Shown here: in pieces, positions 12,423-46,434 of the stretch
Layout of the letters: each line of letters begins with the position of its first letter
Position numbering within the stretch: the first letter of the stretch is position 1
Assembly: GCA_023246005.1 (NCBI GenBank)
Contig: JAHFJG010000009.1
Coordinates: 1 to 47,914, forward strand
Direction: 5' to 3'
Source of the DNA: Candidatus Doudnabacteria bacterium
GTDB lineage: Bacteria > Patescibacteriota > Doudnabacteria > UBA920 > O2-02-FULL-48-8
Length of the DNA: 47,914 nt
The notes under the pieces: model-generated
Databases searched by the model: none
What the model saw: the letters and a program-made list of their open reading frames with translations, nothing else
What the model was told of the DNA's origin: nothing
Made by a program: the position numbers and the translations under genes

Positions 12423-12725
12423 CCCCCACACCAAACGAATTTAAAAGTCGATTGACTTCTTAATTCGTATTAATAGTTGTCTCCTGGCCCTTGCCCCAAG
12501 CTTGAGATTATGTTCTCTATGACGCGCATCTTGTTCTGAAGCGTAAGCTTCATAATAAACAAGTGTTAACGGTCTTCTATTTCTAGAAGATGGCACAAGT
12601 CCTGAATTATGTTTTTTATATCGTTCTATTAAATTCTTTGTAGATCCAATATATAACAGCTGATCCTTCAAACTTTTTAAGATATAAACGAAAAACATAA
12701 TTCAAAACTCGTTATGGTGTGAGGG
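12423..12725. mobile_element. Family A element carrying a GIY-YIG gene
   Basis: CCCCCACACCA at the left end and TGGTGTGAGGG at the right end bracket the ORF within about 20 bp; flanks TTTA/TGTA. Confidence 0.7.
12441..12698 (-). CDS. Small GIY-YIG nuclease family protein
   Basis: VYILKS...LYIGST...R...H...YYEAY...ARHRE..LK. Confidence 0.92.
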   Translation of the reverse strand: MFFVYILKSLKDQLLYIGSTKNLIERYKKHNSGLVPSSRNRRPLTLVYYEAYASEQDARHREHNLKLGARARRQLLIRIKKSIDF

Positions 12726-12767: not shown

Positions 12768-12854
12768 TGGTGCCGACGGTCGGATTCGAACCGACATGCT
12801 CTTGCGAGTGCTGGGTCCTAAACCCAGTGCGTCTGCCAGTTTCGCCACGTCGGC
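12768..12854 (-). tRNA. tRNA-Leu (TAG)
   Basis: GCCGACGTGGCGAAACTGG...TTTAGGA...long variable arm...GGTTCGAATCC...CCA. Confidence 0.95.
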
Positions 12855-12860
12855 ATTAAC

Positions 12861-13100
12861 TTATTTTAGCTTTTTTAAGAATTCTTTACCAGTTCCCGAT
12901 TTCAAATATTTCTCTCTTTGTCTGGCAGAAACTCGATCTGAAAACTCTTCTGTATATATTAATTTAAAAGGCCTATATGCACGCGTTGTTCTTTCTTTAC
13001 CTAGATTATGCTGGACAATCCTCTTTTCAACATTAAATGCTAAACCTACGTAAATATAATTTCTTATCAAACTACTGATCGCATAGACTGAACATTTCAT
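12861..13100 (-). CDS. Small GIY-YIG nuclease family protein
   Basis: VYAISS...YIYVG...R...HN.G...AR.REKYLKSG.GKEF. Confidence 0.92.
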   Translation of the reverse strand: MKCSVYAISSLIRNYIYVGLAFNVEKRIVQHNLGKERTTRAYRPFKLIYTEEFSDRVSARQREKYLKSGTGKEFLKKLK

Positions 13101-16914: not shown

Positions 16915-17772
16915 ATGCGAAAAACGATCATTCTATTAGTGGTCCTGGTCTGCGCTGGGTATGCAATTCGCACTTGGCACGTTGGCAATCGTGCGAGTTA
17001 CTATCGAGAGGAAGCGAAAGTCGACCACAAGATCGGGCAGATGCATGTTGGCAATACCGCCAAGCTCGAAGACGAGACGAATCCAAAACTCATGAAGCAA
17101 TGGGTCAAAGACGTCGACGTCGCGAGCTTCACGGGGGCAATCCTGCCATCGGCAACCAGGTCTGCCGGCTTGGACAATGCCAAGGATGCCTGGCTGTCTA
17201 GAGCGCAGCGCAAAATTCCGTTGAGGCGCGATCCGTACGTCACTGGCGCTCAGAACGCCTGGAAAACGTTCTTTCCGGCGCACGAAGACATCCTCGTAAC
17301 AGTCGGGAAAGATGATCAGATCTGTAATGGGGAACGGATCAACGAATGCTACCATGCTGATGGGCCATACACAGGTTTCAAGCCCAGCATCATGGATGAG
17401 AAAAAAACGGTGATGCAGGATCCGGATCCCAAGCATGGCGGCAACCCATCATCACCGCCGGGAAACTATCGGGCTCTGATAGCCCGAATCAGCCAACGAG
17501 GCGGACACACCGCGATTGTCGAAACGGGTTTCCAATTCGCAATTTGCGGTGCAAGCGCTGGGGCTGGCGACACAGAACTCTGGACAAATGGGGCCACTAT
17601 AATTGGCCCATCGCACAATGTCCAGGATTTCTGGGGCGGTAGCGGCGGCTACAGCTTCGAAGCAAAACCTGATCGGTTGGCAATGACGGCATGCTTGCTT
17701 CGACCAGGCCAGCCGATCGTGCCACTCGATTCGCTGGCAACGCTGTCAACAATGGCAGCAAACAATCAATAG
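16915..17772 (+). CDS. Hypothetical secreted or membrane-anchored protein
   Basis: MRKTIILLVVLVCAG signal-like N-terminus; AGGAG RBS. Confidence 0.75.
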   Translation: MRKTIILLVVLVCAGYAIRTWHVGNRASYYREEAKVDHKIGQMHVGNTAKLEDETNPKLMKQWVKDVDVASFTGAILPSATRSAGLDNAKDAWLSRAQRKIPLRRDPYVTGAQNAWKTFFPAHEDILVTVGKDDQICNGERINECYHADGPYTGFKPSIMDEKKTVMQDPDPKHGGNPSSPPGNYRALIARISQRGGHTAIVETGFQFAICGASAGAGDTELWTNGATIIGPSHNVQDFWGGSGGYSFEAKPDRLAMTACLLRPGQPIVPLDSLATLSTMAANNQ

Positions 17773-17817
17773 GAGGGTATTGGAAAAACCGATTCAGGCT
17801 ATACGCCTAATCACATA

Positions 17818-17860
17818 CGGGTGTGCGAAGCTACCAAGCTTCCGCACCCGTTTTCTTTTT
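17818..17860 (+). terminator. Intrinsic terminator
   Basis: CGGGTG...CACCCG hairpin followed by a T-tract. Confidence 0.65.
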
Positions 17861-17861
17861 A

Positions 17862-18009
17862 CCCAGTATATCAACTTCGATAATGGTTTTTGAATTTGCT
17901 TTTGCCAAAAGTAGTAGTTATTAATTTTTATTTAACCCTAATCTATAGTTTTAAAATTTAACTAATCAAAAACCATTAAGGGCAAAAGCATCGAAGTTGT
18001 ATTACTGGG
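17862..18009. mobile_element. MITE-like element, family B (CCCAGTATATCAACTTC...GAAGTTGTATTACTGGG)
   Basis: Same two asymmetric ends as the element at 25784-26092; AT-rich core; flanks TTTA/TTTG. Confidence 0.85.
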
Positions 18010-18014
18010 TTTGC

Positions 18015-18365
18015 CTAAAAAATTATTGGTTTTCTATCAATAAAAATTGATTGTATAAATCTTTTTTTCAACTCTTGATCATCAGACCAAGTCACAATAA
18101 TCAGTCTGTTCCCAACATAAAAATAAAGTTCTTGCCATGACAATTTAGATTTTCTACCAAGCACTTTCTTCGATGATAATCTCGTTTCTATTTCCTGCAA
18201 GATAGTTAAATATAATTTTTCGGCACTGGCCTTATAATTTTGGATAATCAATGCCTCACTCCATACACCGCTGTCTTGGTATAATTCAAAAAAAGCCTCC
18301 TCATAATGGCGGATAAATCGCTGCAACTCAACCAAAGCCTGCTCGCTAAATTGCAAATCTATCAT
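18015..18365 (-). CDS. Hypothetical protein (possibly RelE/ParE-like)
   Basis: IDLQFSEQALVEL N-terminus and C-terminal beta pattern; overlaps a small upstream gene. Confidence 0.55.
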   Translation of the reverse strand: MIDLQFSEQALVELQRFIRHYEEAFFELYQDSGVWSEALIIQNYKASAEKLYLTILQEIETRLSSKKVLGRKSKLSWQELYFYVGNRLIIVTWSDDQELKKRFIQSIFIDRKPIIF

Positions 18366-18507
18366 GCTTCTGGGTTTTGAGCGGGACCTGTTTTTTCCAT
18401 TGAGACCGTAGGCGTGCGCGCAATCGCTGGGCTGAAAGTTCCAAGTACGTTTCCATTTCTGCTTTAATCTCATCTAAGGAATAGGTTGTTGTATTATTCT
18501 TCTTCAT
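18346..18507 (-). CDS. Small hypothetical protein (possible antitoxin partner)
   Basis: Short ORF overlapping the downstream gene. Confidence 0.45.
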   Translation of the reverse strand: MKKNNTTTYSLDEIKAEMETYLELSAQRLRARLRSQWKKQVPLKTQKHDRFAI

Positions 18508-18537
18508 ATAAATCAAGTATATCAAGACCAAAAACCA

Positions 18538-18566
18538 TTGACAAGATGGCTTTTTTGTGCTAATAT
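18538..18566 (+). promoter_or_regulatory. Sigma70-type promoter
   Basis: TTGACA-17 bp-TAATAT. Confidence 0.65.
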
Positions 18567-18639
18567 TGAGTGTTCTTTTTACAACGGCTCACTGTCTCAT
18601 TTCCGGCTCACAAAGCCGTGCCTGTAGGAGGGCACAACA

Positions 18640-19593
18640 ATGAAGCGTTTACTTTTCGCCGCACTGCTTGTGGTTCTCGTTTCGTCGTTCGCGTGGGCAC
18701 AAGACGGTCAAATCAGCCTGTCATTCGCCGACACGCCGGTCTACCAGATCGTCAACGCGATCGCCGCGGGCCAAGGCTACAAGCTCAAGCCTGCCGACAA
18801 CCTGCCTGGTGAGAAGGTCAGCATCAATATAGCTGACCAGACCATGGCGCAGGCACTAACGCAGTTGCTTAACCCGCGCGGTTTCGGCTTCCTGATCAAC
18901 TCCACTGATCACGTGATCGTGGTGTACAAGCAAGAAGGCGTGCCTAACGTTGCTAGTAGTATTGCGACTCCTTCACAACAGCCACGCACCGCAATTCAGG
19001 GCGCTCCTTGGGATTTGAGCGTAGCAGGATCATCATATGCGGCTGGAGTTCGAGGGTTCGATGCTCGGGCTTATGCCAGAGAGGCCATGGTAGCCGGAAC
19101 TTACTTGGAAGACCGAGCCTACCTTGAACAACGTCGATTTTCCGGCAGTGACTTGGCGTACTCTCCGGCGAGCTACGGTAGTTCTGGTTTCGGGCGGGTA
19201 TACGGCGGGTACTATGGTGGTAGCTATGGCTACGTCGATCCAGTGTATGGCGCGAGATTTCGAGGCGCGGCAACCACAGGATACATGAAGATCAACGCCA
19301 ACAAAGACACCCATTTTGCAAAGTACCTCCACGTACTACGCAAGGAGGGAAACAATTGGGTGTATGTGGGTGGGGGCGGCAAGTCGTTCCGCAGTTTCCA
19401 TGATCCGATGGAACTGCCAGTCGGACATCAGACCCTGCGATTCGAGCTACGGCGCGATGGCAAAACCCGCTACCTCACGGAGGAGTTTGATATCATGTCC
19501 AAATTCGACCGCCAACATGCGCTACAATACACGGTCGATGAAGATATGTTCAACTCCTTTGCAGATACAGAGGAGATTAAGCGCGAACAGTAA
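18640..19593 (+). CDS. Secreted protein with STN/secretin N0-like domain
   Basis: Signal peptide ending AWA; ISLSFADTPV...KVSINIADQTMAQALTQLL pattern; GY-rich linker. Confidence 0.7.
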   Translation: MKRLLFAALLVVLVSSFAWAQDGQISLSFADTPVYQIVNAIAAGQGYKLKPADNLPGEKVSINIADQTMAQALTQLLNPRGFGFLINSTDHVIVVYKQEGVPNVASSIATPSQQPRTAIQGAPWDLSVAGSSYAAGVRGFDARAYAREAMVAGTYLEDRAYLEQRRFSGSDLAYSPASYGSSGFGRVYGGYYGGSYGYVDPVYGARFRGAATTGYMKINANKDTHFAKYLHVLRKEGNNWVYVGGGGKSFRSFHDPMELPVGHQTLRFELRRDGKTRYLTEEFDIMSKFDRQHALQYTVDEDMFNSFADTEEIKREQ

Positions 19594-19664
19594 TAGAATA
19601 CCGACGCTTCAAAAACAAAACGGCTGGTCCCTTTCATGGGATCAGCCGTCTTATTATTTTTGAT

Positions 19665-20036
19665 CTATGCTCGGCCGAACAGGGCGTTAGAAATTACAGC
19701 AACAATGACGTATGACAAAATAACTACAACCAAACCAATAATGGCGTTTTGTATCGCTTTCTTTCCGGCTTCGGCCTGTTCTTCATTCCCCGCGGAGGTA
19801 ATATAACGGAAGCCACCATAAATAAGAAAGCCAACTGTGATAATACCTACCACTACAAGAAAAACATCGATATAGTACAAAACTACGTTGGTAAACGTAT
19901 CAGTTTCTTGTCCTGGCAGCCCAGCTGGTTTGGGTAAATCAAGAGCTGCGAATGCAGGTATCGCTAATAATGACCCAATTAGGAATGAACCTAATAGCAG
20001 TATTTTTCTTATCTGCCGCTTCATGAAATTGATCAT
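19665..20036 (-). CDS. TrbC/VirB2-like pilin
   Basis: YGGFRYITSAGNEEQAEAGKKAIQNAIIGLVVVILSY. Confidence 0.88.
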   Translation of the reverse strand: MINFMKRQIRKILLLGSFLIGSLLAIPAFAALDLPKPAGLPGQETDTFTNVVLYYIDVFLVVVGIITVGFLIYGGFRYITSAGNEEQAEAGKKAIQNAIIGLVVVILSYVIVAVISNALFGRA

Positions 20037-20037
20037 G

Positions 20038-20442
20038 TTATACCTGGTTGGAAACCAAAGCGTTGGAGATGACGCGCACGATCACGAACGACAGAATGAT
20101 TACCACGATACCAATAATGGCATTCGTAATAATTTTCTTAGCTTGTTCCGCAGTCTCTTCATTGCCGGCGGAAGTGATATAGCGGAAGCCGCCGATGATC
20201 AGGAACAAGACTGCAATCAAGCCGGCAACGGCTAAAGCAATGTTAATTATCTTAATAACGAACCCTGACACTGAAGTATCGTTTGGCAAGCCAGATCCAG
20301 CACCGCTTGGTGTTTGAAATTGAGCAAAAGCAAACGGAGCTAGAGCTAAAACACCAGTTAGCACTAAAACCGAAATTTGAGTTGCTTTTGCAATTGAACT
20401 TTGTTTTCCGCCAAAGGCGGACATATTCACTATTTGTTTCAT
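20038..20442 (-). CDS. TrbC/VirB2-like pilin
   Basis: GGFRYITSAGNEETAEQAKKIITNAIIG. Confidence 0.88.
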   Translation of the reverse strand: MKQIVNMSAFGGKQSSIAKATQISVLVLTGVLALAPFAFAQFQTPSGAGSGLPNDTSVSGFVIKIINIALAVAGLIAVLFLIIGGFRYITSAGNEETAEQAKKIITNAIIGIVVIILSFVIVRVISNALVSNQV

Positions 20443-20548
20443 ATACTTAATTCTTCATTAATTTTTGATATTGTTATTATACTACGATATTTATCATTAC
20501 GCAAAAACCTAATTTTCGACCTTTAACCCGTCTGACGGGTTTTAAATA

Positions 20549-20953
20549 TTAAATACTCCCATTTAAAGCATTAATAATTACGGCAACTATGATATAAGAC
20601 AAGATGACAATAACTAAGCCTATTATAGCATTAGTCAAGGTTTTCTTGCCAGCTTCGGCCTGTTCTTCGTTTCCATGAGAGGTAATGAATTGAAAACCGC
20701 CAATGATGATAAAAAGTATAGAGATTATGCCAACAATAGGCAGTAATATTTTTTCAATTACAAAAAGGATAATACCCTTAAAACTATTGTCGCCGATGTT
20801 AACAAAGTAATCCGTATTCGGGTTATTAATTTTAACAGCAAAAACTGGCCCAGCGACTATGAGCAACAAAATTATTAAATTAATTATAATTAGTGCTTTT
20901 TTCATATTTATCCTCTTACACTTGTGCTCCAAATAATTTAGCGGTGGCAACAA
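20549..20953 (-). CDS. TrbC/VirB2-like pilin (true start probably MKKAL at 20905)
   Basis: GGFQFITSHGNEEQAEAGKKTLTNAIIG. Confidence 0.88.
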   Translation of the reverse strand: MLPPLNYLEHKCKRINMKKALIIINLIILLLIVAGPVFAVKINNPNTDYFVNIGDNSFKGIILFVIEKILLPIVGIISILFIIIGGFQFITSHGNEEQAEAGKKTLTNAIIGLVIVILSYIIVAVIINALNGSI

Positions 20954-21560
20954 CTATGACATAAGCTAACAATGCTACCACTAATCCTATTATAGCCCAT
21001 TGCAAACTCTGCTTCGCTTGAGTTACTTGCTCCTCATTGCCTTGCGCGGTTATGTAACGAAAGCCAGCAATAATAATCATCAAAATCGCCAGCAAGCCCG
21101 CAACTTCCAAAAATCCCGTTATCATTTTTGTCAGTAAATCACCGAAGGTGTTGCTGGTCAAGGGGTTTTGGACTGGATTTGTTCCCTCTGGTATATCTTT
21201 TGTTCCGATATAATTGCCAATAGCGGAAATTATAACATAAGCAAATAAACTTAAAACAAAACCTGATAAAGTCCATTGCAGCGCAGCTTTAGATTTCGTG
21301 ATCTCTTCTTCGTTGCCCCCTGATGCGATCATTCTGAAACCAGAAAATACGACCATGATTATTACAGTCAATCCCATTAACAAACCAAAAGTTTTCGCGA
21401 GATAAGTCAGAGCCATTTGAAGAGTGTCAATGCCGGCTGCCGCTGGATTACAAAGCGCGACCTGATTTCCAGCCGAGTCGCTGCAACTCTGCAAATTTGC
21501 CATTGAAAAATTGGGGATCAATAAAGCACTCAAAAAAATAATGAATAACAAGCGCTTCAT
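20916..21560 (-). CDS. Tandem two-domain TrbC/VirB2-like pilin
   Basis: Two copies of GFR..(S/A).GNEE...K..LQW. Confidence 0.85.
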   Translation of the reverse strand: MKRLLFIIFLSALLIPNFSMANLQSCSDSAGNQVALCNPAAAGIDTLQMALTYLAKTFGLLMGLTVIIMVVFSGFRMIASGGNEEEITKSKAALQWTLSGFVLSLFAYVIISAIGNYIGTKDIPEGTNPVQNPLTSNTFGDLLTKMITGFLEVAGLLAILMIIIAGFRYITAQGNEEQVTQAKQSLQWAIIGLVVALLAYVIVVATAKLFGAQV

Positions 21561-22012
21561 TTATTTTTGGGCAAATTGTTTAAAACGCCAAAAGCATCTT
21601 TAACTGAATTTTGATAATCAAGCGTCTGACCTGTAGCAACCGAAATAATAAAATTCAACAATAAAAAAGACGCCATAACTAAAAAAAATCCAATTATCGC
21701 ATGCGTTAAAGCTGATTTAGCTTTAGTAATTGCCTCTTCATTTCCAGCGGCATTGATCATTTCCCATCCGGCCCAAACAATAAAAAACAAAGCCACTAAC
21801 CAAGCCCAGGCTAATAAATAATTTATTATGTTTACTACCACTTCTACCAAATCATGAATACTGCATTGATTGGCCGCAATTTCTTCAGGAGTTGGGTTGG
21901 GTCCTAAACCAGCGCTGCTGCCGCATTTAACAAGACCTGCCTGCGCTATATTAACTGATACAAATAGCAATAAACATGAAATAATAAATATTATTTTTAA
22001 TTTTAGTTTCAT
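21557..22012 (-). CDS. TrbC/VirB2-like pilin with Cys pair
   Basis: GLVKCG...C and AAGNEEAITKAKSALTHAIIG. Confidence 0.85.
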   Translation of the reverse strand: MKLKLKIIFIISCLLLFVSVNIAQAGLVKCGSSAGLGPNPTPEEIAANQCSIHDLVEVVVNIINYLLAWAWLVALFFIVWAGWEMINAAGNEEAITKAKSALTHAIIGFFLVMASFLLLNFIISVATGQTLDYQNSVKDAFGVLNNLPKNK

Positions 22013-22051
22013 CGAATTTTAAATCAAAAGTGAATATACTATACCACAAAT

Positions 22052-23365
22052 CTACCGTTGCTGCAAATTAAGATTAATCTGCTGAACTGCATTGCGCAAT
22101 GCGTCATCAGGGCTGAAATTATGCAAGACCACATCATCAATCATCTTGGTAAACACGCCTTCAAACAAGTTAGCGTCTTTTTTATACACACTGCGCGCAG
22201 TCAGAGCGCTTTCGGCAAATGAACCAATCTGCGTATCTGATGCTTGATCTGGCAACATATCTTTCCTGGAAGCCACAAGCTTGTGTTTGGCATAATATTT
22301 GGTAAGCTCCGGTTTGCTGCTGATAAAGTTTAAAAAATCCCAAGCCGCGGCAGGGCTTTTGGAAGATTTAGAGACAGCTTCCCCCCAATAATTGGCAAAA
22401 TTGACTTTAGTCGTCTGTTCGCTGATTTGGGGCGCGGCTGCTACTCCCCAATTCAAATTCGGGGCTTTACTGCTAATCACAGGTGCGGTATAAGCATAGT
22501 TTAATATCATGGCGACTTTGCCTTGAGTAAATGCATCAATGCTGGCATCGGACTTGGAATTCCAAGTGTAGGAAGTTTTGGCCGGATCAGTAAATTGGGT
22601 ATAAAAAGTTAGAGCCGTGGAGCCGGGATTAAATGATTGGTTAGTAGTCGGATCATTCTGTGTCTGGTCAAACACTGCGGTATTCAAATCATTGGAATAA
22701 AACTTAGTGCCATTTTGCAGCATTAAAAGACTGATAATATCTACAGCTCTGTTAACATTATTGGAAGTACCCAGAGCCACGCCTGAACGAGCAAACTTAC
22801 CAGGATTTGATACTTTGGTAATTTTTTGAACATCACTGACTAGTTCTGGCCAAGTGGTCGGCGGTTGGGCGATACCTGCTGAATTTAAAAGGTCTTTATT
22901 ATAATAAAGACCTAAAACATCAACTGATACAGGAATAGCATAAATTTTATTATTATTGACAAAATCTGAAGTCGCTACGTCCACAAAAGTCTGCTGATAA
23001 GTTCGGAGACTCATAAGAGTATCTGGGATTGGAAACATCTTGTCAGAGTGTTTGGCCAGCCAATCATTGTGAATAGTGAAGATATCAGGACCGGTTCCTG
23101 CGGCAATGGCATTAACCAGATCCTGTTCATAAGTCGTCACGTCTTTTTTCACAAAGTTAATCGTGACGTTTTTGTGAATCTTTTGATAGTCGTTAATTAG
23201 ATCCTGGACATTTTCAGAATCTTCAAATGTTTTCCACCAAATAAGCGTTACCCTGCCATTATTGCCAGATTTGGGTGATGTGCCGGACGAAAAAAATAAA
23301 ACTCCAGCCAAAATTAGAAGCAGAACTATTACACCACCGATAATATAATATTTTTTGTTTTCCAT
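22052..23365 (-). CDS. Extracellular solute-binding protein (sugar ABC type)
   Basis: N-terminal anchor, GPDIF, LYYNKDL, PTTW, AAWDFLNF. Confidence 0.88.
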   Translation of the reverse strand: MENKKYYIIGGVIVLLLILAGVLFFSSGTSPKSGNNGRVTLIWWKTFEDSENVQDLINDYQKIHKNVTINFVKKDVTTYEQDLVNAIAAGTGPDIFTIHNDWLAKHSDKMFPIPDTLMSLRTYQQTFVDVATSDFVNNNKIYAIPVSVDVLGLYYNKDLLNSAGIAQPPTTWPELVSDVQKITKVSNPGKFARSGVALGTSNNVNRAVDIISLLMLQNGTKFYSNDLNTAVFDQTQNDPTTNQSFNPGSTALTFYTQFTDPAKTSYTWNSKSDASIDAFTQGKVAMILNYAYTAPVISSKAPNLNWGVAAAPQISEQTTKVNFANYWGEAVSKSSKSPAAAWDFLNFISSKPELTKYYAKHKLVASRKDMLPDQASDTQIGSFAESALTARSVYKKDANLFEGVFTKMIDDVVLHNFSPDDALRNAVQQINLNLQQR

Positions 23366-23370
23366 TACTT

Positions 23371-24249
23371 TTATTTTACTATATTTTTCAAATATTCGGC
23401 AAATTCTGATTTGAGATCATCATGCTTGAGCCCAAACTCTACTACAGCCTTAAGATACTCTAGCTTATTGCCGCAGTCATAGTATTTTGCATTCTTAAGT
23501 TCCAAAGCGAAAACATCCCTTTTTTTAATCAACCTATCAATCGCTTCTGGCAGCCAAATCTCGCCTCCGCGGCTAGGCGGCATGGTTTCTAAAATTTTAA
23601 AAATATCCGGAGTCAACAAATAATTTCCGTGCGTGGCGAGATTAGAGGGAGCTTTCCCAGTCTCGGGCTTTTCTACAATCCTGTTAATTTTATAAACATT
23701 ATCTTTAACAGCCGTCACGTCCGCAATTCCATAGCGACTAACTTCAGCCTCGCCCACGCGAACTCCCGCGATCATTGGTCCTTGATATTGCTCATAAGCT
23801 TGAATCAGTTGTTTAACGGCAGATGGCTGGGCATGAAAGAACTCATCACCCCACATCACGATAAACGGTTCGTCTCCCACCACGTCTTTGGCCATCAGTA
23901 CGGCATGTCCATTACCTAAAGCTTCTTTTTGCCGGACATAGACAAAATTGGCCAATTCCGAAATTTTTCTGACTGCTTCAAGTTCTTCTTTTTTGTTGGC
24001 TTGAGCCAGATGAGCTTCTAATTCAAAATGTCGATCGAAATGATCTTCAATCGCTCGTTTATGCCAACCAGTAACTATAATAATTTGTTCAATTCCGGCT
24101 TCAACTGCTTGCTCCACGACATATTGTATCACTGGCTTATCAACGATCGGTAGCATCTCCTTGGGTTGGGCTTTCGTGGCTGGCAAAAATCTCGTGCCGA
24201 ATCCGGCTGCTGGAATTACTGCTTTACGAACTTTTTTGAGTGTAGACAT
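23371..24249 (-). CDS. galU: UTP--glucose-1-phosphate uridylyltransferase
   Basis: KAVIPAAGFGTRFLPATKAQPKEMLPIVDKP, VEKP. Confidence 0.95.
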   Translation of the reverse strand: MSTLKKVRKAVIPAAGFGTRFLPATKAQPKEMLPIVDKPVIQYVVEQAVEAGIEQIIIVTGWHKRAIEDHFDRHFELEAHLAQANKKEELEAVRKISELANFVYVRQKEALGNGHAVLMAKDVVGDEPFIVMWGDEFFHAQPSAVKQLIQAYEQYQGPMIAGVRVGEAEVSRYGIADVTAVKDNVYKINRIVEKPETGKAPSNLATHGNYLLTPDIFKILETMPPSRGGEIWLPEAIDRLIKKRDVFALELKNAKYYDCGNKLEYLKAVVEFGLKHDDLKSEFAEYLKNIVK

Positions 24250-24261
24250 AGCCCATATATT

Positions 24262-25782
24262 CTACTCTACTTTCGGTCTGTATTGCAACGCTTCGGCTAA
24301 ATGATTAATGGCTATGTCTGGAATTCCTTCAAGATCAGCAATGGTCCTGGCTAACTTTAAAATCCGATGATAAGATCGAGCGGATAAATACATTTTTACC
24401 ACAGCAGTTTTCATAAAATTTTGCTCATCGCTGCCAAGCTGGCAAAATTCTTTAATCTCTTTAATGCCCATTTCAGAATTAGTTTTTATTCCTTTTAAAT
24501 TCGTAAATCTTTCGGTTTGAATGTCCCTGGCTTTCTGGACTCTAACCTGAATATTTTCTGAAGATTCTCCGGGTGATTCTGAAGATAATTTTTCATATTC
24601 CAAACGGCCGACCTCGACATGCAAATCAATGCGATCGAGCAATGGCCCTGAAATCTTTTTTTGATACTTCATGATTTGACCAGGAGTACAAATACAGCTT
24701 TTGGTTGGATCTGAATAATAGCCGCAGGGACAAGGGTTCTGAGCTGCAACCAAAGTAAACTGGGCTGGAAATGTGGCTGTGGAATGCACACGCGCAACTG
24801 TCACAATACCATCTTCCAAGGGCTGTCTTAGATTCTCAAGTACCGATCGGGAGAATTCCGGAAATTCATCCAAGAACAAAACACCTCGATGGGCCAGAGA
24901 AATTTCACCTGGTTTCGGGTTGCTTCCTCCCCCGACTAAAGCAATTCCAGAGGTTGTGTGGTGCGGACTCCGAAAAGGTCTGGCTGTAACTAAAGTTTTA
25001 TTTATGTTCAATAACCCTGCTACACTATAAACTTTCGTAATTTCTAAAACCTCATCTGCAGTCAGTTTAGGCAAAATTGAAGGCAAGGCTTTGGCGAGCA
25101 ATGTTTTGCCAGTGCCAGGAGGACCAGACAAAAGTAAATTATGTCCTCCAGAAGCTGCGATTTCAAGCGCGCGTTTGGCTGCCTCTTGGCCTTTGATCAG
25201 CTGCATATCAAAGACCGTTTCAGGCGTTTGTAAAATTCTATTCCAATCAGCAGATTCAACCATTTCAACTTTAATCAAGCCTTGTAAATAACCTATAACT
25301 TCATACAAACTTTTAACAGGGATAATTTCTATGCCAGTAACCAAGCTCGCTTCCTTGGTGTTGCCTTTGGGTATAAACACTTGTTTAAATCCCCGCTCCT
25401 TAGCCATGAGCAAAATTGACAAAACGCCAGAAACTGTCCTTAGATTTCCATCTAAGGCTAATTCTCCAACAAACAATTTATCTTTTGGTTCAAAAAATAT
25501 CTGACCGGAATTATGTAAAATAGATAACGCAATTGGCAAATCATAGTATGTCCCATTTTTAGGCAAGTCAGCAGGCGCTAGATTTACAGCAATGTGGGTG
25601 GGTGGAAAGATAGCACTGGAATTTCTGATTGCTGACTTGACTCGTTCTTTCGCTTCTTGGACAGCTGCGTCTGGCAAACCGACAATAATAGTTTTGGGCA
25701 AACCTCCTGAAATATCAACTTCGACCTCGATGAGTGCGGCATTCAAACCTATTAGAGACGCGGAATAAATTTTTGCGGGCAT
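24262..25782 (-). CDS. comM: YifB/ComM Mg-chelatase-like AAA+ ATPase
   Basis: VGLPDAAVQEAKERV, GPPGTGKT, PFRSPHH, PGEISLAHRGVLFLDE, NPCPCG; start set at MPAKIYS. Confidence 0.95.
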   Translation of the reverse strand: MPAKIYSASLIGLNAALIEVEVDISGGLPKTIIVGLPDAAVQEAKERVKSAIRNSSAIFPPTHIAVNLAPADLPKNGTYYDLPIALSILHNSGQIFFEPKDKLFVGELALDGNLRTVSGVLSILLMAKERGFKQVFIPKGNTKEASLVTGIEIIPVKSLYEVIGYLQGLIKVEMVESADWNRILQTPETVFDMQLIKGQEAAKRALEIAASGGHNLLLSGPPGTGKTLLAKALPSILPKLTADEVLEITKVYSVAGLLNINKTLVTARPFRSPHHTTSGIALVGGGSNPKPGEISLAHRGVLFLDEFPEFSRSVLENLRQPLEDGIVTVARVHSTATFPAQFTLVAAQNPCPCGYYSDPTKSCICTPGQIMKYQKKISGPLLDRIDLHVEVGRLEYEKLSSESPGESSENIQVRVQKARDIQTERFTNLKGIKTNSEMGIKEIKEFCQLGSDEQNFMKTAVVKMYLSARSYHRILKLARTIADLEGIPDIAINHLAEALQYRPKVE

Positions 25783-25783
25783 A

Positions 25784-26092
25784 CCCAGTATATCAACTTC
25801 CCGTGCCAAACGCCGATTGGCGTTGGTACTCTAATAATCTTAGTCCGGTAAATCTTCTGCCTTGGGTTGTTTTAAGATACTTCTCACGGCGTTTGGCATC
25901 TTTCTCTGATAAACAAGCTTCATAGTAAATAAGCTTAAAAGGCAGTCTAAACTTGGAGGAAAAGTTATAGCCATGCTCGTGTTCTTTTATTCGTCTAGTT
26001 AAATTGTTCGTATGCCCGATGTAGTTCTTACCGTCTGTTAAACTCTCAAGAATGTAGACATAAAAGAACACGTGGGAAGTTGTATTACTGGG
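25784..26092. mobile_element. Family B element carrying a GIY-YIG gene, with 4-bp target duplication
   Basis: CCCAGTATATCAACTTCCC...GGGAAGTTGTATTACTGGG flanked on both sides by CATA. Confidence 0.85.
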
Positions 26093-26095
26093 CAT
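25793..26095 (-). CDS. Small GIY-YIG nuclease family protein
   Basis: FYVYILES...YIGHT...RR..EH...YYEA...AKRREKYLK; stop codon lies in the inverted repeat; alternative GTG start at 26071. Confidence 0.92.
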   Translation of the reverse strand: MPSNTTSHVFFYVYILESLTDGKNYIGHTNNLTRRIKEHEHGYNFSSKFRLPFKLIYYEACLSEKDAKRREKYLKTTQGRRFTGLRLLEYQRQSAFGTGS

Positions 26096-26143
26096 AAAAA
26101 TCTTTATAATAAAAGCCCCAACTCCTATTGTCAGGGCTTCTCG

Positions 26144-26374
26144 TTATTTGCTACTTTGTTTGATAAAGCTTACTGCTTCATTTAAAGCTTGATTGAAGTC
26201 GCTGACTTCAGAATCAAAAATATTAATATAGCTTTTCTTTTTCTCATCCCCGTTGATTTCAGACTGTGTAATCTTCAAAAACGGTTTAGTATTTTTTGCA
26301 GACTTGACGTCAAAGAAATAAGTTCGGCGTCCGGCTGTTACTCTGGTTGAGAAAAGTGCTGGTGCAAATTCCAT
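26144..26374 (-). CDS. PUR-family (DUF3276-like) nucleic-acid-binding protein
   Basis: FSTRVTAGRRTYFFDVK...FLKITQS. Confidence 0.85.
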   Translation of the reverse strand: MEFAPALFSTRVTAGRRTYFFDVKSAKNTKPFLKITQSEINGDEKKKSYINIFDSEVSDFNQALNEAVSFIKQSSK

Positions 26375-26377
26375 ATT

Positions 26378-26581
26378 TTACCTCGTCCTACCTGCCGACC
26401 AGGCAGGCATTAATAATCCATTGAATCTGGCATTGACAATCAGCGGGACTCCGGACAGGCTGGCAACCTCACGGGCAATTGATTGCAACTTGCAATTATG
26501 GTGAACATTATTCGCACAATGTGCGCACAAATTTTTCAATTGACTGATGATGGTATGCTTTTGTTTTTCAAATTCGCTCAT
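26378..26581 (-). CDS. Small Cys/His-rich hypothetical protein
   Basis: CAHC...HHNC; directly coupled to lexA. Confidence 0.6.
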   Translation of the reverse strand: MSEFEKQKHTIISQLKNLCAHCANNVHHNCKLQSIAREVASLSGVPLIVNARFNGLLMPAWSAGRTR

Positions 26582-26582
26582 A

Positions 26583-27227
26583 TTACTCTAATCTTCTAAT
26601 TACTCCGATTACTTTACCCTGAATCGACCATTCATTTTCAGGGTAGATATTTGGATAATCCTTATTCTCGGCTTTCAAATAAAATTTATTGTCTTTTCCG
26701 CCAGAGGCGGATCCGCCTCCGGCGGATTTCACTAAACGCTTAACCGTAGCTTCATCTTCAAGCAATGCTACCACTATATCGTTGATATCTGCAATCTTTT
26801 GTTGCTTCACAATCACCAGATCCCCATTCAAGATTCCTGCATCCTTCATACTCATGCCTTGGACTTTTAGGAGAAAAACATCTTTGCGGCCTCGAATCAA
26901 ACTGGTTGGTAGATTCAGCCAATCTTCAATCTGTTCTTCAGCTAGCATGGGAAGTCCTGCTGTGATTCGGCCAAGTAATGGAACACTAATCAATCCTCGT
27001 CCTACAGGTTCACCTTCTGGATTTAAGACTTCAATGCCTCGAGCCTTACTTGATCTGCGGATGTAACCTTTAGTTTCCAAAACCCGGAGTAATTTTGCCA
27101 CAGCGTTTTTAGATTTAACTCTAAGGCCTTTGGCGATTTCTGAAATTGAAGGTGGAAGCCCTTTTTTTTGGATTTCATCAGTTAATAGTTCTAATAATTG
27201 TTTTTGCTTGGACGTTAGTTCATTCAT
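26583..27227 (-). CDS. lexA: SOS repressor LexA
   Basis: LTSKQ..., PPSISEI, AG cleavage site (ITAGLP), GMSM, ATVKR; start set at MNEL. Confidence 0.95.
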   Translation of the reverse strand: MNELTSKQKQLLELLTDEIQKKGLPPSISEIAKGLRVKSKNAVAKLLRVLETKGYIRRSSKARGIEVLNPEGEPVGRGLISVPLLGRITAGLPMLAEEQIEDWLNLPTSLIRGRKDVFLLKVQGMSMKDAGILNGDLVIVKQQKIADINDIVVALLEDEATVKRLVKSAGGGSASGGKDNKFYLKAENKDYPNIYPENEWSIQGKVIGVIRRLE

Positions 27228-27311
27228 ATGTTTGGAGGTTTTCGAAGGAACTAGTAGATTCGGGGCGGCTCCTAGCTTACCGGTTCCTTCGTTTTTACCT
27301 TCCATGATTAT

Positions 27312-28739: not shown

Positions 28740-28816
28740 TGGTGGGCCAGGATGGACTCGAACCATCGACCGCGACTTTATAAGTGTCGTGCTCTAACCA
28801 GCTGAGCTACTGGCCC
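28740..28816 (-). tRNA. tRNA-Ile (TAT anticodon)
   Basis: GGGCCAGTAGCTCAGCTGGTTAGAGC-ACGACA-CTTATAA-AGTCG...GGTTCGAGTCC...CCA. Confidence 0.88.
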
Positions 28817-46294: not shown

Positions 46295-46434
46295 CCCAGT
46301 AATACAACTTCGATGCTTTTGCCTTAAATGGCTACTAATTACCAAAAAAAATAAAAGATTAGCTTAAATCTATTAGTAATATTTTATTTTTTTGCAAAAG
46401 CAATTAAGCCATTTATCGAAGTTGATATACTGGG
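46295..46434. mobile_element. MITE-like element, family B, with 4-bp target duplication
   Basis: CCCAGTAATACAACTTCGAT...ATCGAAGTTGATATACTGGG flanked by TCAA on both sides; inverted relative to the copy at 17862. Confidence 0.88.

Follow-up and report, generated by a model that had tools for sequence, protein, structure and literature searches.

A family of very small mobile elements in Patescibacteria with paired terminal arms and a GIY-YIG nuclease gene, found on host start codons

Introduction

Insertion sequence (IS) elements and miniature inverted-repeat transposable elements (MITEs), such as the Correia elements of Neisseria, are DDE transposons with inverted repeats that cause a short target duplication, occur as gene-less copies and insert beside genes. 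Here, we describe a unit of 309 bp in a stretch of 47,914 nucleotides (nt) from a Candidatus Doudnabacteria bacterium (assembly GCA_023246005.1, contig JAHFJG010000009.1; this whole stretch is called the window). It resembles IS elements and MITEs in its terminal inverted repeats, its short target duplication, its many gene-less copies and its insertion beside genes, but its only gene codes for a GIY-YIG nuclease and no DDE transposase was found with these ends among the matches listed. Moreover, the inner parts of the repeats covary in the manner of a helix, unlike a fixed sequence to which a protein binds, and the copies dock in one orientation on start codons.

Other described systems share some of these features. 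In the REPIN/RAYT and IS200/IS605 systems, elements with hairpin ends undergo single-strand transposition by HUH proteins, without target duplication. The family described here has in common with them hairpin ends, one small protein and many non-coding copies that would be moved in trans, but it has a true duplication of 3-4 bp, a GIY-YIG instead of an HUH protein and a gene that is itself multi-copy and moving, and Y1 proteins do not co-occur with it. The attC sites of integrons and attP(+) of the CTX phage are folded single-strand sites of tyrosine recombinases, again without target duplication. There, as here, the stem can change in sequence and still retain its pairing and a few unpaired bases, but no tyrosine recombinase is linked to our arms, and the target is duplicated. 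The GIY-YIG homing endonucleases, I-TevI and the Seg proteins, have DNA-binding domains and one cognate site, and neither inverted ends nor a duplication. The gene studied here is, like theirs, a selfish GIY-YIG gene that lies between host genes and relies on host expression signals; it differs in coding for a bare catalytic domain, in being framed by inverted ends and a duplication and in occupying 57 distinct host sites, and its modelled fold is nearer to Slx1 and UPF0213.

Indeed, the best matches in sequence and structure are the stand-alone domains Slx1 and UPF0213/YhbQ. These proteins have been described as acting in repair or recombination or as having an unknown function, and not as parts of mobile elements with cognate arms. 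Prokaryotic Slx1-like proteins have been presented as the minimal form of the GIY-YIG domain (PMC1564403), and Slx1 is described as a cutter of branched DNA. In Penelope-like retroelements a GIY-YIG nuclease opens the target (PMC8557442). These elements are eukaryotic and need a reverse transcriptase, whereas the present element has none and is about 310 bp in total. A literature search, mostly outside subscription journals and without supplementary files, found no description of such an element, and the accessible parts of PMC12455944, PMC8565304 and PMC1564403 do not mention one. The family is apparently undescribed, large and at home in Patescibacteria, and its anatomy (a covarying stem, a bare GIY-YIG gene that reaches from one arm to the other, a duplication of 3-4 bp and a docked position at start codons) fits no known class tested.

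Results

The 309-bp unit at comM

On the minus strand, the locus has the order TTTT-TATG-(arm-open reading frame-arm)-TATG-CCCGCA, and the downstream ATG opens comM (Table 1). On the forward strand, the ends read CCCAGTATATCAACTTCCC (25784-25802) and GGGAAGTTGTATTACTGGG (26074-26092) and differ mutually in three central bases. Translated from the ATG that is borrowed from the upstream copy of the duplication, the nuclease begins with MPSNTTSH-V-FFYVYILES; its TGA precedes the ATG of comM by 10 nt. Its codon 9 is a start-capable GTG (26071-26069). Between the promoter-like site at 26106..26134 and the borrowed ATG there is no Shine-Dalgarno-like sequence.

A first-pass annotation, made by a model from the letters alone, had described the 309-bp unit with its imperfect 19-nt ends, the exact CATA duplication and the GIY-YIG stop codon within the left repeat. 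All of this was confirmed, but the two main features of the element, the covarying stem and the position on the comM start codon, had been missed. The annotation had also expected an empty site upstream of comM in relatives, and this is what was found: comM has a plain (T)ATG start and no element in 13/13 relatives read, several of which have the same upstream gene and hairpin. One such empty site reads ...aaatttATGCCAGCG. Four DNA runs of one study contain the stretch as contigs; none joins across the element and, hence, the empty allele was not seen in them. No RNA run was listed among those with the stretch. We regard the 309-bp unit as intact and recently moved, one of a family of very small mobile elements.

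Table 1 Features of the element at comM and gene-less copies in the same genome (positions refer to the window unless a contig, C, is named)
Feature	Position	Strand	Remarks
GIY-YIG unit of 309 bp	25784-26092		two asymmetric 19-nt inverted ends, CATA/CATA flanks, one open reading frame
Upstream copy of the 4-bp target duplication, TATG on minus strand	26093..26096	-	ATG 26095-26093 in frame with nuclease reading frame
5' arm of terminal stem in gene sense ('B end'), CCCAGTAATACAACTTCCC	26074..26092	-	codes residues 2-8 (PSNTTSH)
GIY-YIG nuclease reading frame, 100 amino acids, Slx1/UPF0213 type	25793..26095	-	TGA 25795-25793 within 3' arm
3' arm of terminal stem ('A end'), GGGAAGTTGATATACTGGG on minus strand	25784..25802	-	contains stop codon of the reading frame
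Downstream copy of the duplication, TATG	25780..25783	-	ATG 25782-25780 is the comM start codon
Host gene comM (Mg-chelatase-like ATPase)	24262..25782	-	start codon is the docking site
Promoter-like site CTGACA-17-TATTAT	26106..26134	-	consensus match only; ends 10 nt before borrowed ATG
Gene-less copy of 148 bp	17862..18009	+	flanks TTTA/TTTG; between two convergent genes
Gene-less copy of 140 bp	46295..46434	-	flanks TCAA/TCAA; orientation opposite to the copy at 17862-18009
CGATGCTTTTGC subfamily in TTGAC, five of the eight short copies of the source genome	C5:1276-1419, C7:88135-88279, C25:3194-3340, window 46295-46434, C30:41642-41787

Some smaller observations concern the same locus. In the program-made list of open reading frames (ORFs), comM is given as 24262-25809 (-): the distal arm is in the reading frame of comM, and the gene is therefore extended by nine codons, up to a TTG within the element. 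Upstream of the element (26144-27305, minus strand) lie lexA (26583-27305), an ORF of 67 amino acids without a family and a DUF3276 gene (26144-26374). Just within the 3' arm, in coding sequence, there is a small hairpin (AAACGC...GCGTTT, 25803-25830), found at the same place in 10 other copies. A compensatory change in 2/5 of its pairs is weak evidence, and the hairpin could be a coding constraint.

Copies in the source genome

In the following, G-numbers denote genomes (G000, the assembly that contains the window, and its relatives, of which 41 were compared), C-numbers contigs of G000 and L-numbers loci from the scans. G000 comprises 673 kb in 43 contigs and is 80% complete; the window is contig C27. 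It contains ten paired copies, two GIY-YIG units of 309 bp and eight gene-less units of 140-149 bp. The second GIY-YIG unit (G000:C30:31540-31848) is identical to the one in the window in 309/309 bases but has another host gene; it is placed likewise before a gene starting with MPQQYY, and both targets are TTTATG-CCC. A degenerate 17-mer of the ends, with at most one mismatch, matches six times in the window against a mean of 0.01 in 100 shuffles, none of which reached six.

The two gene-less copies in the window have the same two ends and, in addition, common sub-terminal sequence, just as the first-pass annotation had it. Its view of them as empty derivatives has to be amended: the ends match and short duplications are present, but the short copies of G000 have about 45 nt per end in common among themselves and only the outer ~17 nt with the GIY copy and are, therefore, not simple deletion derivatives of it. 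At 46295-46434, upstream of hsp20, a -35-like TTGACA takes its first four bases from the duplicated TTGA (minus strand). Short copies of the CGATGCTTTTGC subfamily lie repeatedly in such TTGAC sequences, which resemble the -35 hexamer, with TTGA or CTTG duplicated and in either orientation; apart from the copies in G000 (Table 1), three more were seen in relatives (L174, L175, L180), and in G009 the subfamily is mostly on ATGA/ATG starts.

Distribution and cargo of the family

Genome contigs were scanned with an exact 16-mer of one arm, which gave at least 118 stretches and, once paired with the other arm, at least 87 elements. Metagenomes were scanned with a protein profile that is blind to the arms; of at least 585 relatives of the nuclease, the best 80 were kept for inspection of the arms. 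All counts from these 118 stretches, 87 elements and 80 loci refer to the matches listed. Nearly all paired elements are in records titled Doudna-, Kerfeld-, Sacchari-, Lipton-, Terry-, Azam-, Yanofsky- or Nealsonbacteria, that is, in Patescibacteria. One complete element (L077) comes from a record titled Gammaproteobacteria, perhaps through a binning error. Most of the unpaired 16-mer matches are in unrelated bacteria and look like chance; the few in Patescibacteria records are mostly at the ends of loci. Phage records gave no match of the 309-bp unit, and among 25 exact 16-mer matches in viral contigs the partner end was beside 0/25.

The lengths of the elements fall into clusters of 62-82, 114-166, 208-254 and 284-336 bp. 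The only coding cargo seen is the GIY-YIG gene of this clade or its internally deleted, decayed remains, which speaks against the first-pass alternative of an end pair that captures single genes. None of the 118 stretches listed has paired ends that enclose more than 336 bp, tandem composites aside, and no DDE transposase was seen with these ends, in line with the earlier remark on the window. In G000, 80% complete as it is, neither DDE_Tnp_1 nor TnpB gave a match. The search for both ends which the annotation had proposed for the genome and its relatives gave flanking 4-mers that repeat exactly in 7/10 copies of G000, with 3/4 bases matching in the other three, and in 68/87 elements of the genome contigs (TATG 44, ATGA 8, CATG 3 and a scatter that includes TAAA, CTTG, TTGA and CCTA). 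The elements occupy many different sites with a duplication of 3-4 bp, and the idea of a compact mobile family with inverted ends, target duplication and gene-less relatives is supported.

One short copy (L008 1736-1881) is nested in a GIY-YIG gene with an exact CAAG duplication, and its central unpaired triplets differ from the invariant ones of the family. Tandem arrays of two or three elements, with TATG between each, stand on one host start at L042 (4040-4576 and 7049-7475) and L100 (5912-7096); the host of one of them is an rpmJ-like gene. An element of 139 bp on the reverse strand of L032 (3974-4112) has two ends of the B type.

The arms are kept as a stem

The ends of 87 distinct pairs were compared as the two strands of a stem. 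Positions 1-7 and 11-16 are Watson-Crick pairs in nearly all of them; positions 8-10 never pair (A.A, T.T, A.A) and are almost invariant. At positions 17-20 there are 3-4 types of Watson-Crick pair each, and 337/348 cells are Watson-Crick, with four G.T and seven other combinations. From position 21 onward, pairing is at the level of shuffled sequences. What is conserved in the arms is a stem of 20 bp, interrupted by a 3x3 internal loop that does not vary. Single-stranded DNA folds of both window copies are closed by this stem (z = -7.7).

The inner positions of the arms also code for the N- and C-terminal tails of the protein, and here the residues change while the pairing stays. In the structure model the tails have low confidence; they are probably disordered. 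Since the inner positions covary, the ends behave as a stem, which a protein that reads duplex ends would not require. G.T cells (4) are no commoner than other mismatches (7), which weakly favours pairing in DNA over pairing in RNA, and the stem would form in DNA, in a single strand or as a cruciform. We also considered the unpaired ATA loops as a guide to the target. This was rejected: the loops are invariant but the duplications vary, and the nested copy with other loops has CAAG.

Most copies lie on a host start codon

Among 81 non-tandem elements, 58 are at the first in-frame ATG of an ORF of at least 60 codons, as compared to 385/3424 control TATG sites of the same loci (Fisher 1.7e-35, a P value overstated by the kinship of the counted elements and by loci that are the same element assembled twice); the effect is large and the docking far above chance. 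Even if insertions into coding sequence are taken to be purged, 236 start sites against 680 intergenic TATG sites would lead one to expect 26% at starts, but 63/64 ATG-flanked elements are there. The copies with a GIY-YIG gene occupy 57 distinct sites; the downstream 4-mer contains ATG at 52, and at 45 the borrowed ATG is in frame down to the stop in the distal arm. On one ParA-like gene, a TGTG duplication lies at the GTG start. The sense orientation was found in all but two of the ATG-linked cases. Most copies are thus exactly on a host start codon and in sense orientation. Judged from the N-termini, docked hosts have rpsL-, rplF-, rpmJ-, rpmE-, rpsB-, metK-, murA- and GAPDH-like starts.

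From the upstream copy of the duplication, the ORF of the element would obtain the transcription and start signals of the host, and the downstream copy would preserve the host gene's own start. With the TGA of the ORF in the distal arm and 10 nt from the host ATG, ribosomes that have completed the nuclease could restart on the host gene.

We found no extended DNA motif at the target: in base composition from -21 to +15, 35 sites with TATG on both sides resemble 207 ordinary TATG gene starts, and this candidate was dropped. A TANNNT box at a spacer of 4-9 nt precedes 25/59 docked sites and 67/319 controls, with a peak at spacer 6 (14/59 against about 4 per 59 in scaled controls). However, docked genes are no more promoter-proximal than controls, and the gap to the upstream gene is 10 nt or less in 27/51 of them against 97/227 controls; targeting of the transcription start sites of leaderless genes would account for part of the sites at best. 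Shine-Dalgarno-like 4-mers were seen before 42/319 control starts and 7/59 docked starts, and a small leaderless peak of -10-like boxes is also present in the controls.

The nuclease and its tie to the arms

The protein matches PF01541, the Pfam family GIY-YIG, with an E value of 5.4e-16 and 59.1 bits (cut-off 22.6). Y12, Y14, Y25, R35, H39 and E59 are invariant in 11/11 copies; we take them to be the GIY-YIG catalytic residues (the two Tyr of GIY/YIG, Arg, His and Glu). The structure model has a pLDDT (predicted local distance difference test) of 76, and its top Foldseek matches are 1zg2, Slx1 and At-HIGLE (E 2e-4 to 2e-2), with UvrC and I-TevI above 1. The nearest solved structures are UPF0213 BH0048, Slx1 and At-HIGLE. 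The protein of 100 amino acids consists of the catalytic core without any further DNA-binding domain and scores 22.6 bits against TIGR01453, whose cut-off is 56. In the closest pair of copies the ratio of nonsynonymous to synonymous substitution rates (dN/dS) is 0.11; in the other seven pairs synonymous sites are saturated (synonymous differences, pS, 0.76-0.93) while the 16-nt arms have barely changed. The nuclease gene is under purifying selection.

Among 41 relatives searched by protein, 34 had GIY-YIG matches, up to 13 per genome. Eight close homologues in relatives (57-88% protein identity, three families) have the same arms in 8/8 cases and abut a host start codon in 8/8. In the metagenomes, both arms (at most three mismatches) are present in 61 of the best 80 loci, and eight are truncated by the end of the contig or locus and have the one arm that is visible. 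The remaining 11 are the most diverged (54-63% identity) and have variant arms at (T)ATG: mostly a C-rich tip, 7-9 bp, a 3-nt mismatch and 8-10 bp, whereas two loci of one type are fully paired. The lengths of the elements at the metagenome loci are nearly all multiples of three (312 in 30 cases, 309 in 13, 315 in eight). The ORF spans from arm to arm and on neither side is there a remnant of the interior of a short copy. In these comparisons, the nuclease clade and the arms stay together and change together, and the nuclease is not a random cargo. A change of the arms as the nuclease diverges is expected if the protein reads the arms.

Two other GIY-YIG families in these genomes have arms of their own. 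Two genes of other families are present in the window at 12480-12704 (-) and 12876-13088 (-), where they flank tRNA-Leu (12768-12854); the former has an in-frame TGA and the ends ACCCTCACACCA / TGGTGTGGGGGT, followed by AAATG. Arms of the type ACCCCC.CAC...GTG.GGGGGT are also found round GIY-YIG genes at G000:C24:2709-2960, L014, L020 and L021, always at a TAA-ATG stop/start junction where TAAA appears to be duplicated. Other arm sequences occur in sister families of GIY-YIG elements (L016 and L286; L277 and L281-L284; L270 and L274; L280), which dock on TATG, and most of their arms have the build 7-9 bp, 3-nt mismatch, 8-10 bp. The nuclease of the CCCCGTAGT type starts at an ATG of its own, which is not in the frame of the borrowed ATG; the arms of the CCCGGTGTCACAAATT type are fully paired. 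A further feature of the window is a tRNA-Ile with the anticodon TAT (28740-28816, minus strand), an unusual route to reading AUA in bacteria.

Discussion

The best explanation in our view, to which we give an even chance, is a mobile element of a new class with hairpin ends. Each element would consist of two mutually pairing arms round a GIY-YIG gene for 100-105 amino acids or round non-coding or decayed sequence. The stem of the arms would be the substrate of the element's own structure-specific nuclease of the Slx1/UPF0213 type, which probably cuts the element. Cuts by this nuclease at the base of the stem could release the element or let it be copied, and at the target it would cut with a stagger of about 4 nt. 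Since a hydrolytic nuclease cannot transfer strands, host repair and ligation must be assumed to complete the joining. Gene-less copies would be moved in trans. By analogy to the REPIN and IS200 systems, a single-stranded folded intermediate is likely. A simple cut-and-ligate route via cohesive 4-nt ends is unsupported; TTGA-flanked copies exist in both orientations.

Several observations weigh against this explanation. To our knowledge, the enzymes of the GIY-YIG superfamily act as hydrolytic nucleases, and a GIY-YIG transposase has not been described. A nuclease of this clade is missing from G009 (12 end matches, 98% complete), G010 (7) and G013 (7, 100% complete), where the best GIY-YIG matches are 48-54% identical and the end copies examined are short. 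The 11 short copies of G009 have a median interior identity of 81%, with 97% in one pair, and there may have been some movement in G009 without the clade nuclease, unless this enzyme was lost later or its part is taken by another GIY-YIG family. With the GIY copy, the short copies in the window have only arms of ~17 nt in common. Copies of the smallest class (62-82 bp) are at an ATG in 0/7 cases and the short copies of G000 in 0/8. Codon 9 of the nuclease gene is ATG, GTG or TTG in 11/11 copies, and the gene may also use a start of its own there. Finally, the choice of DNA over RNA as the material of the stem has the scarcity of G.T (4/348) as its only basis. Of the first-pass proposal that the element is mobilised by its GIY-YIG nuclease, the covariation of nuclease and arms is in favour, whereas three near-complete relatives with 7-12 end matches and no nuclease of the clade are not.

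The absence of this nuclease clade from G009, G010 and G013, rich in short copies as they are, is what an enzyme acting in trans would explain: a host-encoded or lost transposase or recombinase would move the arms, and the GIY-YIG gene would be a selfish passenger, for example a homing-type nuclease that cut gene-less copies and was then copied in between the arms. That short copies match the GIY copy in the arms only would also follow, and the superfamily does include homing enzymes, which cut the uninterrupted site and not their own element (PMC1564403). G000 even has two candidates, one rve integrase (C21:173-1210) and one RAYT-like Y1 (HUH) protein (C33:6836-7714). However, both are single-copy and on contigs without an arm match, and no candidate tracks the arms among the 41 genomes (Y1_Tnp in 6/15 genomes with ends and 9/26 without; rve in 4/15 and 6/26). 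Further points against this reading are that the ORF fills the space from arm to arm without a remnant of a short-copy interior, that the arms change as the nuclease diverges, and that the protein is a bare core of 100 amino acids that stays below the TIGR01453 cut-off. Altogether, we regard a mover in trans as rather unlikely. The same RAYT-like protein, the hairpin-forming ends and the fact that, where the flanks differ, the downstream one is usually TATG could point to a REPIN- or IS200/IS605-like single-strand element that is moved by the HUH (Y1) protein of the genome, with TATG as a cleavage site carried along. This is very improbable: within one subfamily many different 4-mers match on both sides (CTTG, TCAA, TTGA, CCTA, TGTG, ATGA, CAAG) and are, therefore, true duplications, which also led us to reject the flanking TATG as an IS200-like cleavage site, and Y1_Tnp is absent from 9/15 genomes with ends, including G007 (10 matches) and G016 (8). 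We hold it to be just as improbable that the stem has nothing to do with mobility and is an RNA structure at the 5' end of coding regions that serves the host as a regulator or processing site. The stem does start directly after the AUG, 0-1 nt separate its end from the host AUG, and both window copies fold strongly, but it is equally conserved, with compensatory changes, away from gene starts (for example between convergent genes or ahead of a -35 box), G.T pairs do not outnumber other mismatches, its presence at a given gene varies among relatives, and window positions 17700-26300 gave no Rfam match at E values up to 1.

Whether the docking reflects targeting or selection is, in our estimate, about evenly balanced. 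The enzyme may favour a short motif only (TATG or ATGA), with the docking made by selection, a reading that we place slightly below an even chance. Only insertions that duplicate a start would spare both neighbouring genes and let ribosomes keep a harmful RNA hairpin open. Docked genes adjoin the upstream gene in half of the cases (the gaps of 10 nt or less given above), ATGA duplications suit stop/start overlaps, docked sites have no motif beyond that of ordinary TATG starts, and insertions outside ATG with exact duplications do occur. In gene-less copies, the ATG frame is open into the last 24 nt in 18/50 cases as compared to 2/50 for the +1 frame, and the length is a multiple of three in 26/50. 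Selection has more difficulty with the 63/64 elements at starts where purging of coding insertions leaves 26%, with the two identical and, hence, recent copies of G000 that are both on TTTATG-CCC, and with the tandem arrays on one start codon (L042, L100).

It is tempting to go further and to see here the first class of prokaryotic transposable elements that is mobilised by a GIY-YIG structure-specific nuclease acting on the element's own folded-DNA stem, that is aimed at start codons and widespread in Patescibacteria, and that has no promoter or ribosome-binding site of its own but takes its start from the duplication and hands over to the host gene by termination and reinitiation. In this full form the proposal is tentative, and we consider it somewhat less probable than its failure in one part or another. 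If the nuclease does move the element, this would be a new chemistry of prokaryotic transposition beside the DDE, HUH, serine, tyrosine and Cas1 enzymes, and some of the very many UPF0213-like proteins, GIY-YIG domains that stand alone in bacteria and have no known role, would gain a function. If a stem of about 20 bp is all that is needed in cis, it might also be developed into a tool that inserts at gene starts.

The docking shows how a selfish gene can live in genomes that have hardly any DNA to spare. Essential genes, among them ribosomal protein genes, metK, murA and GAPDH-like genes, have their 5' ends altered by it, and docked elements will mislead gene callers on start sites, as at comM. 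At the same time, these junctions are a natural system for reinitiation in organisms that rarely use Shine-Dalgarno sequences.

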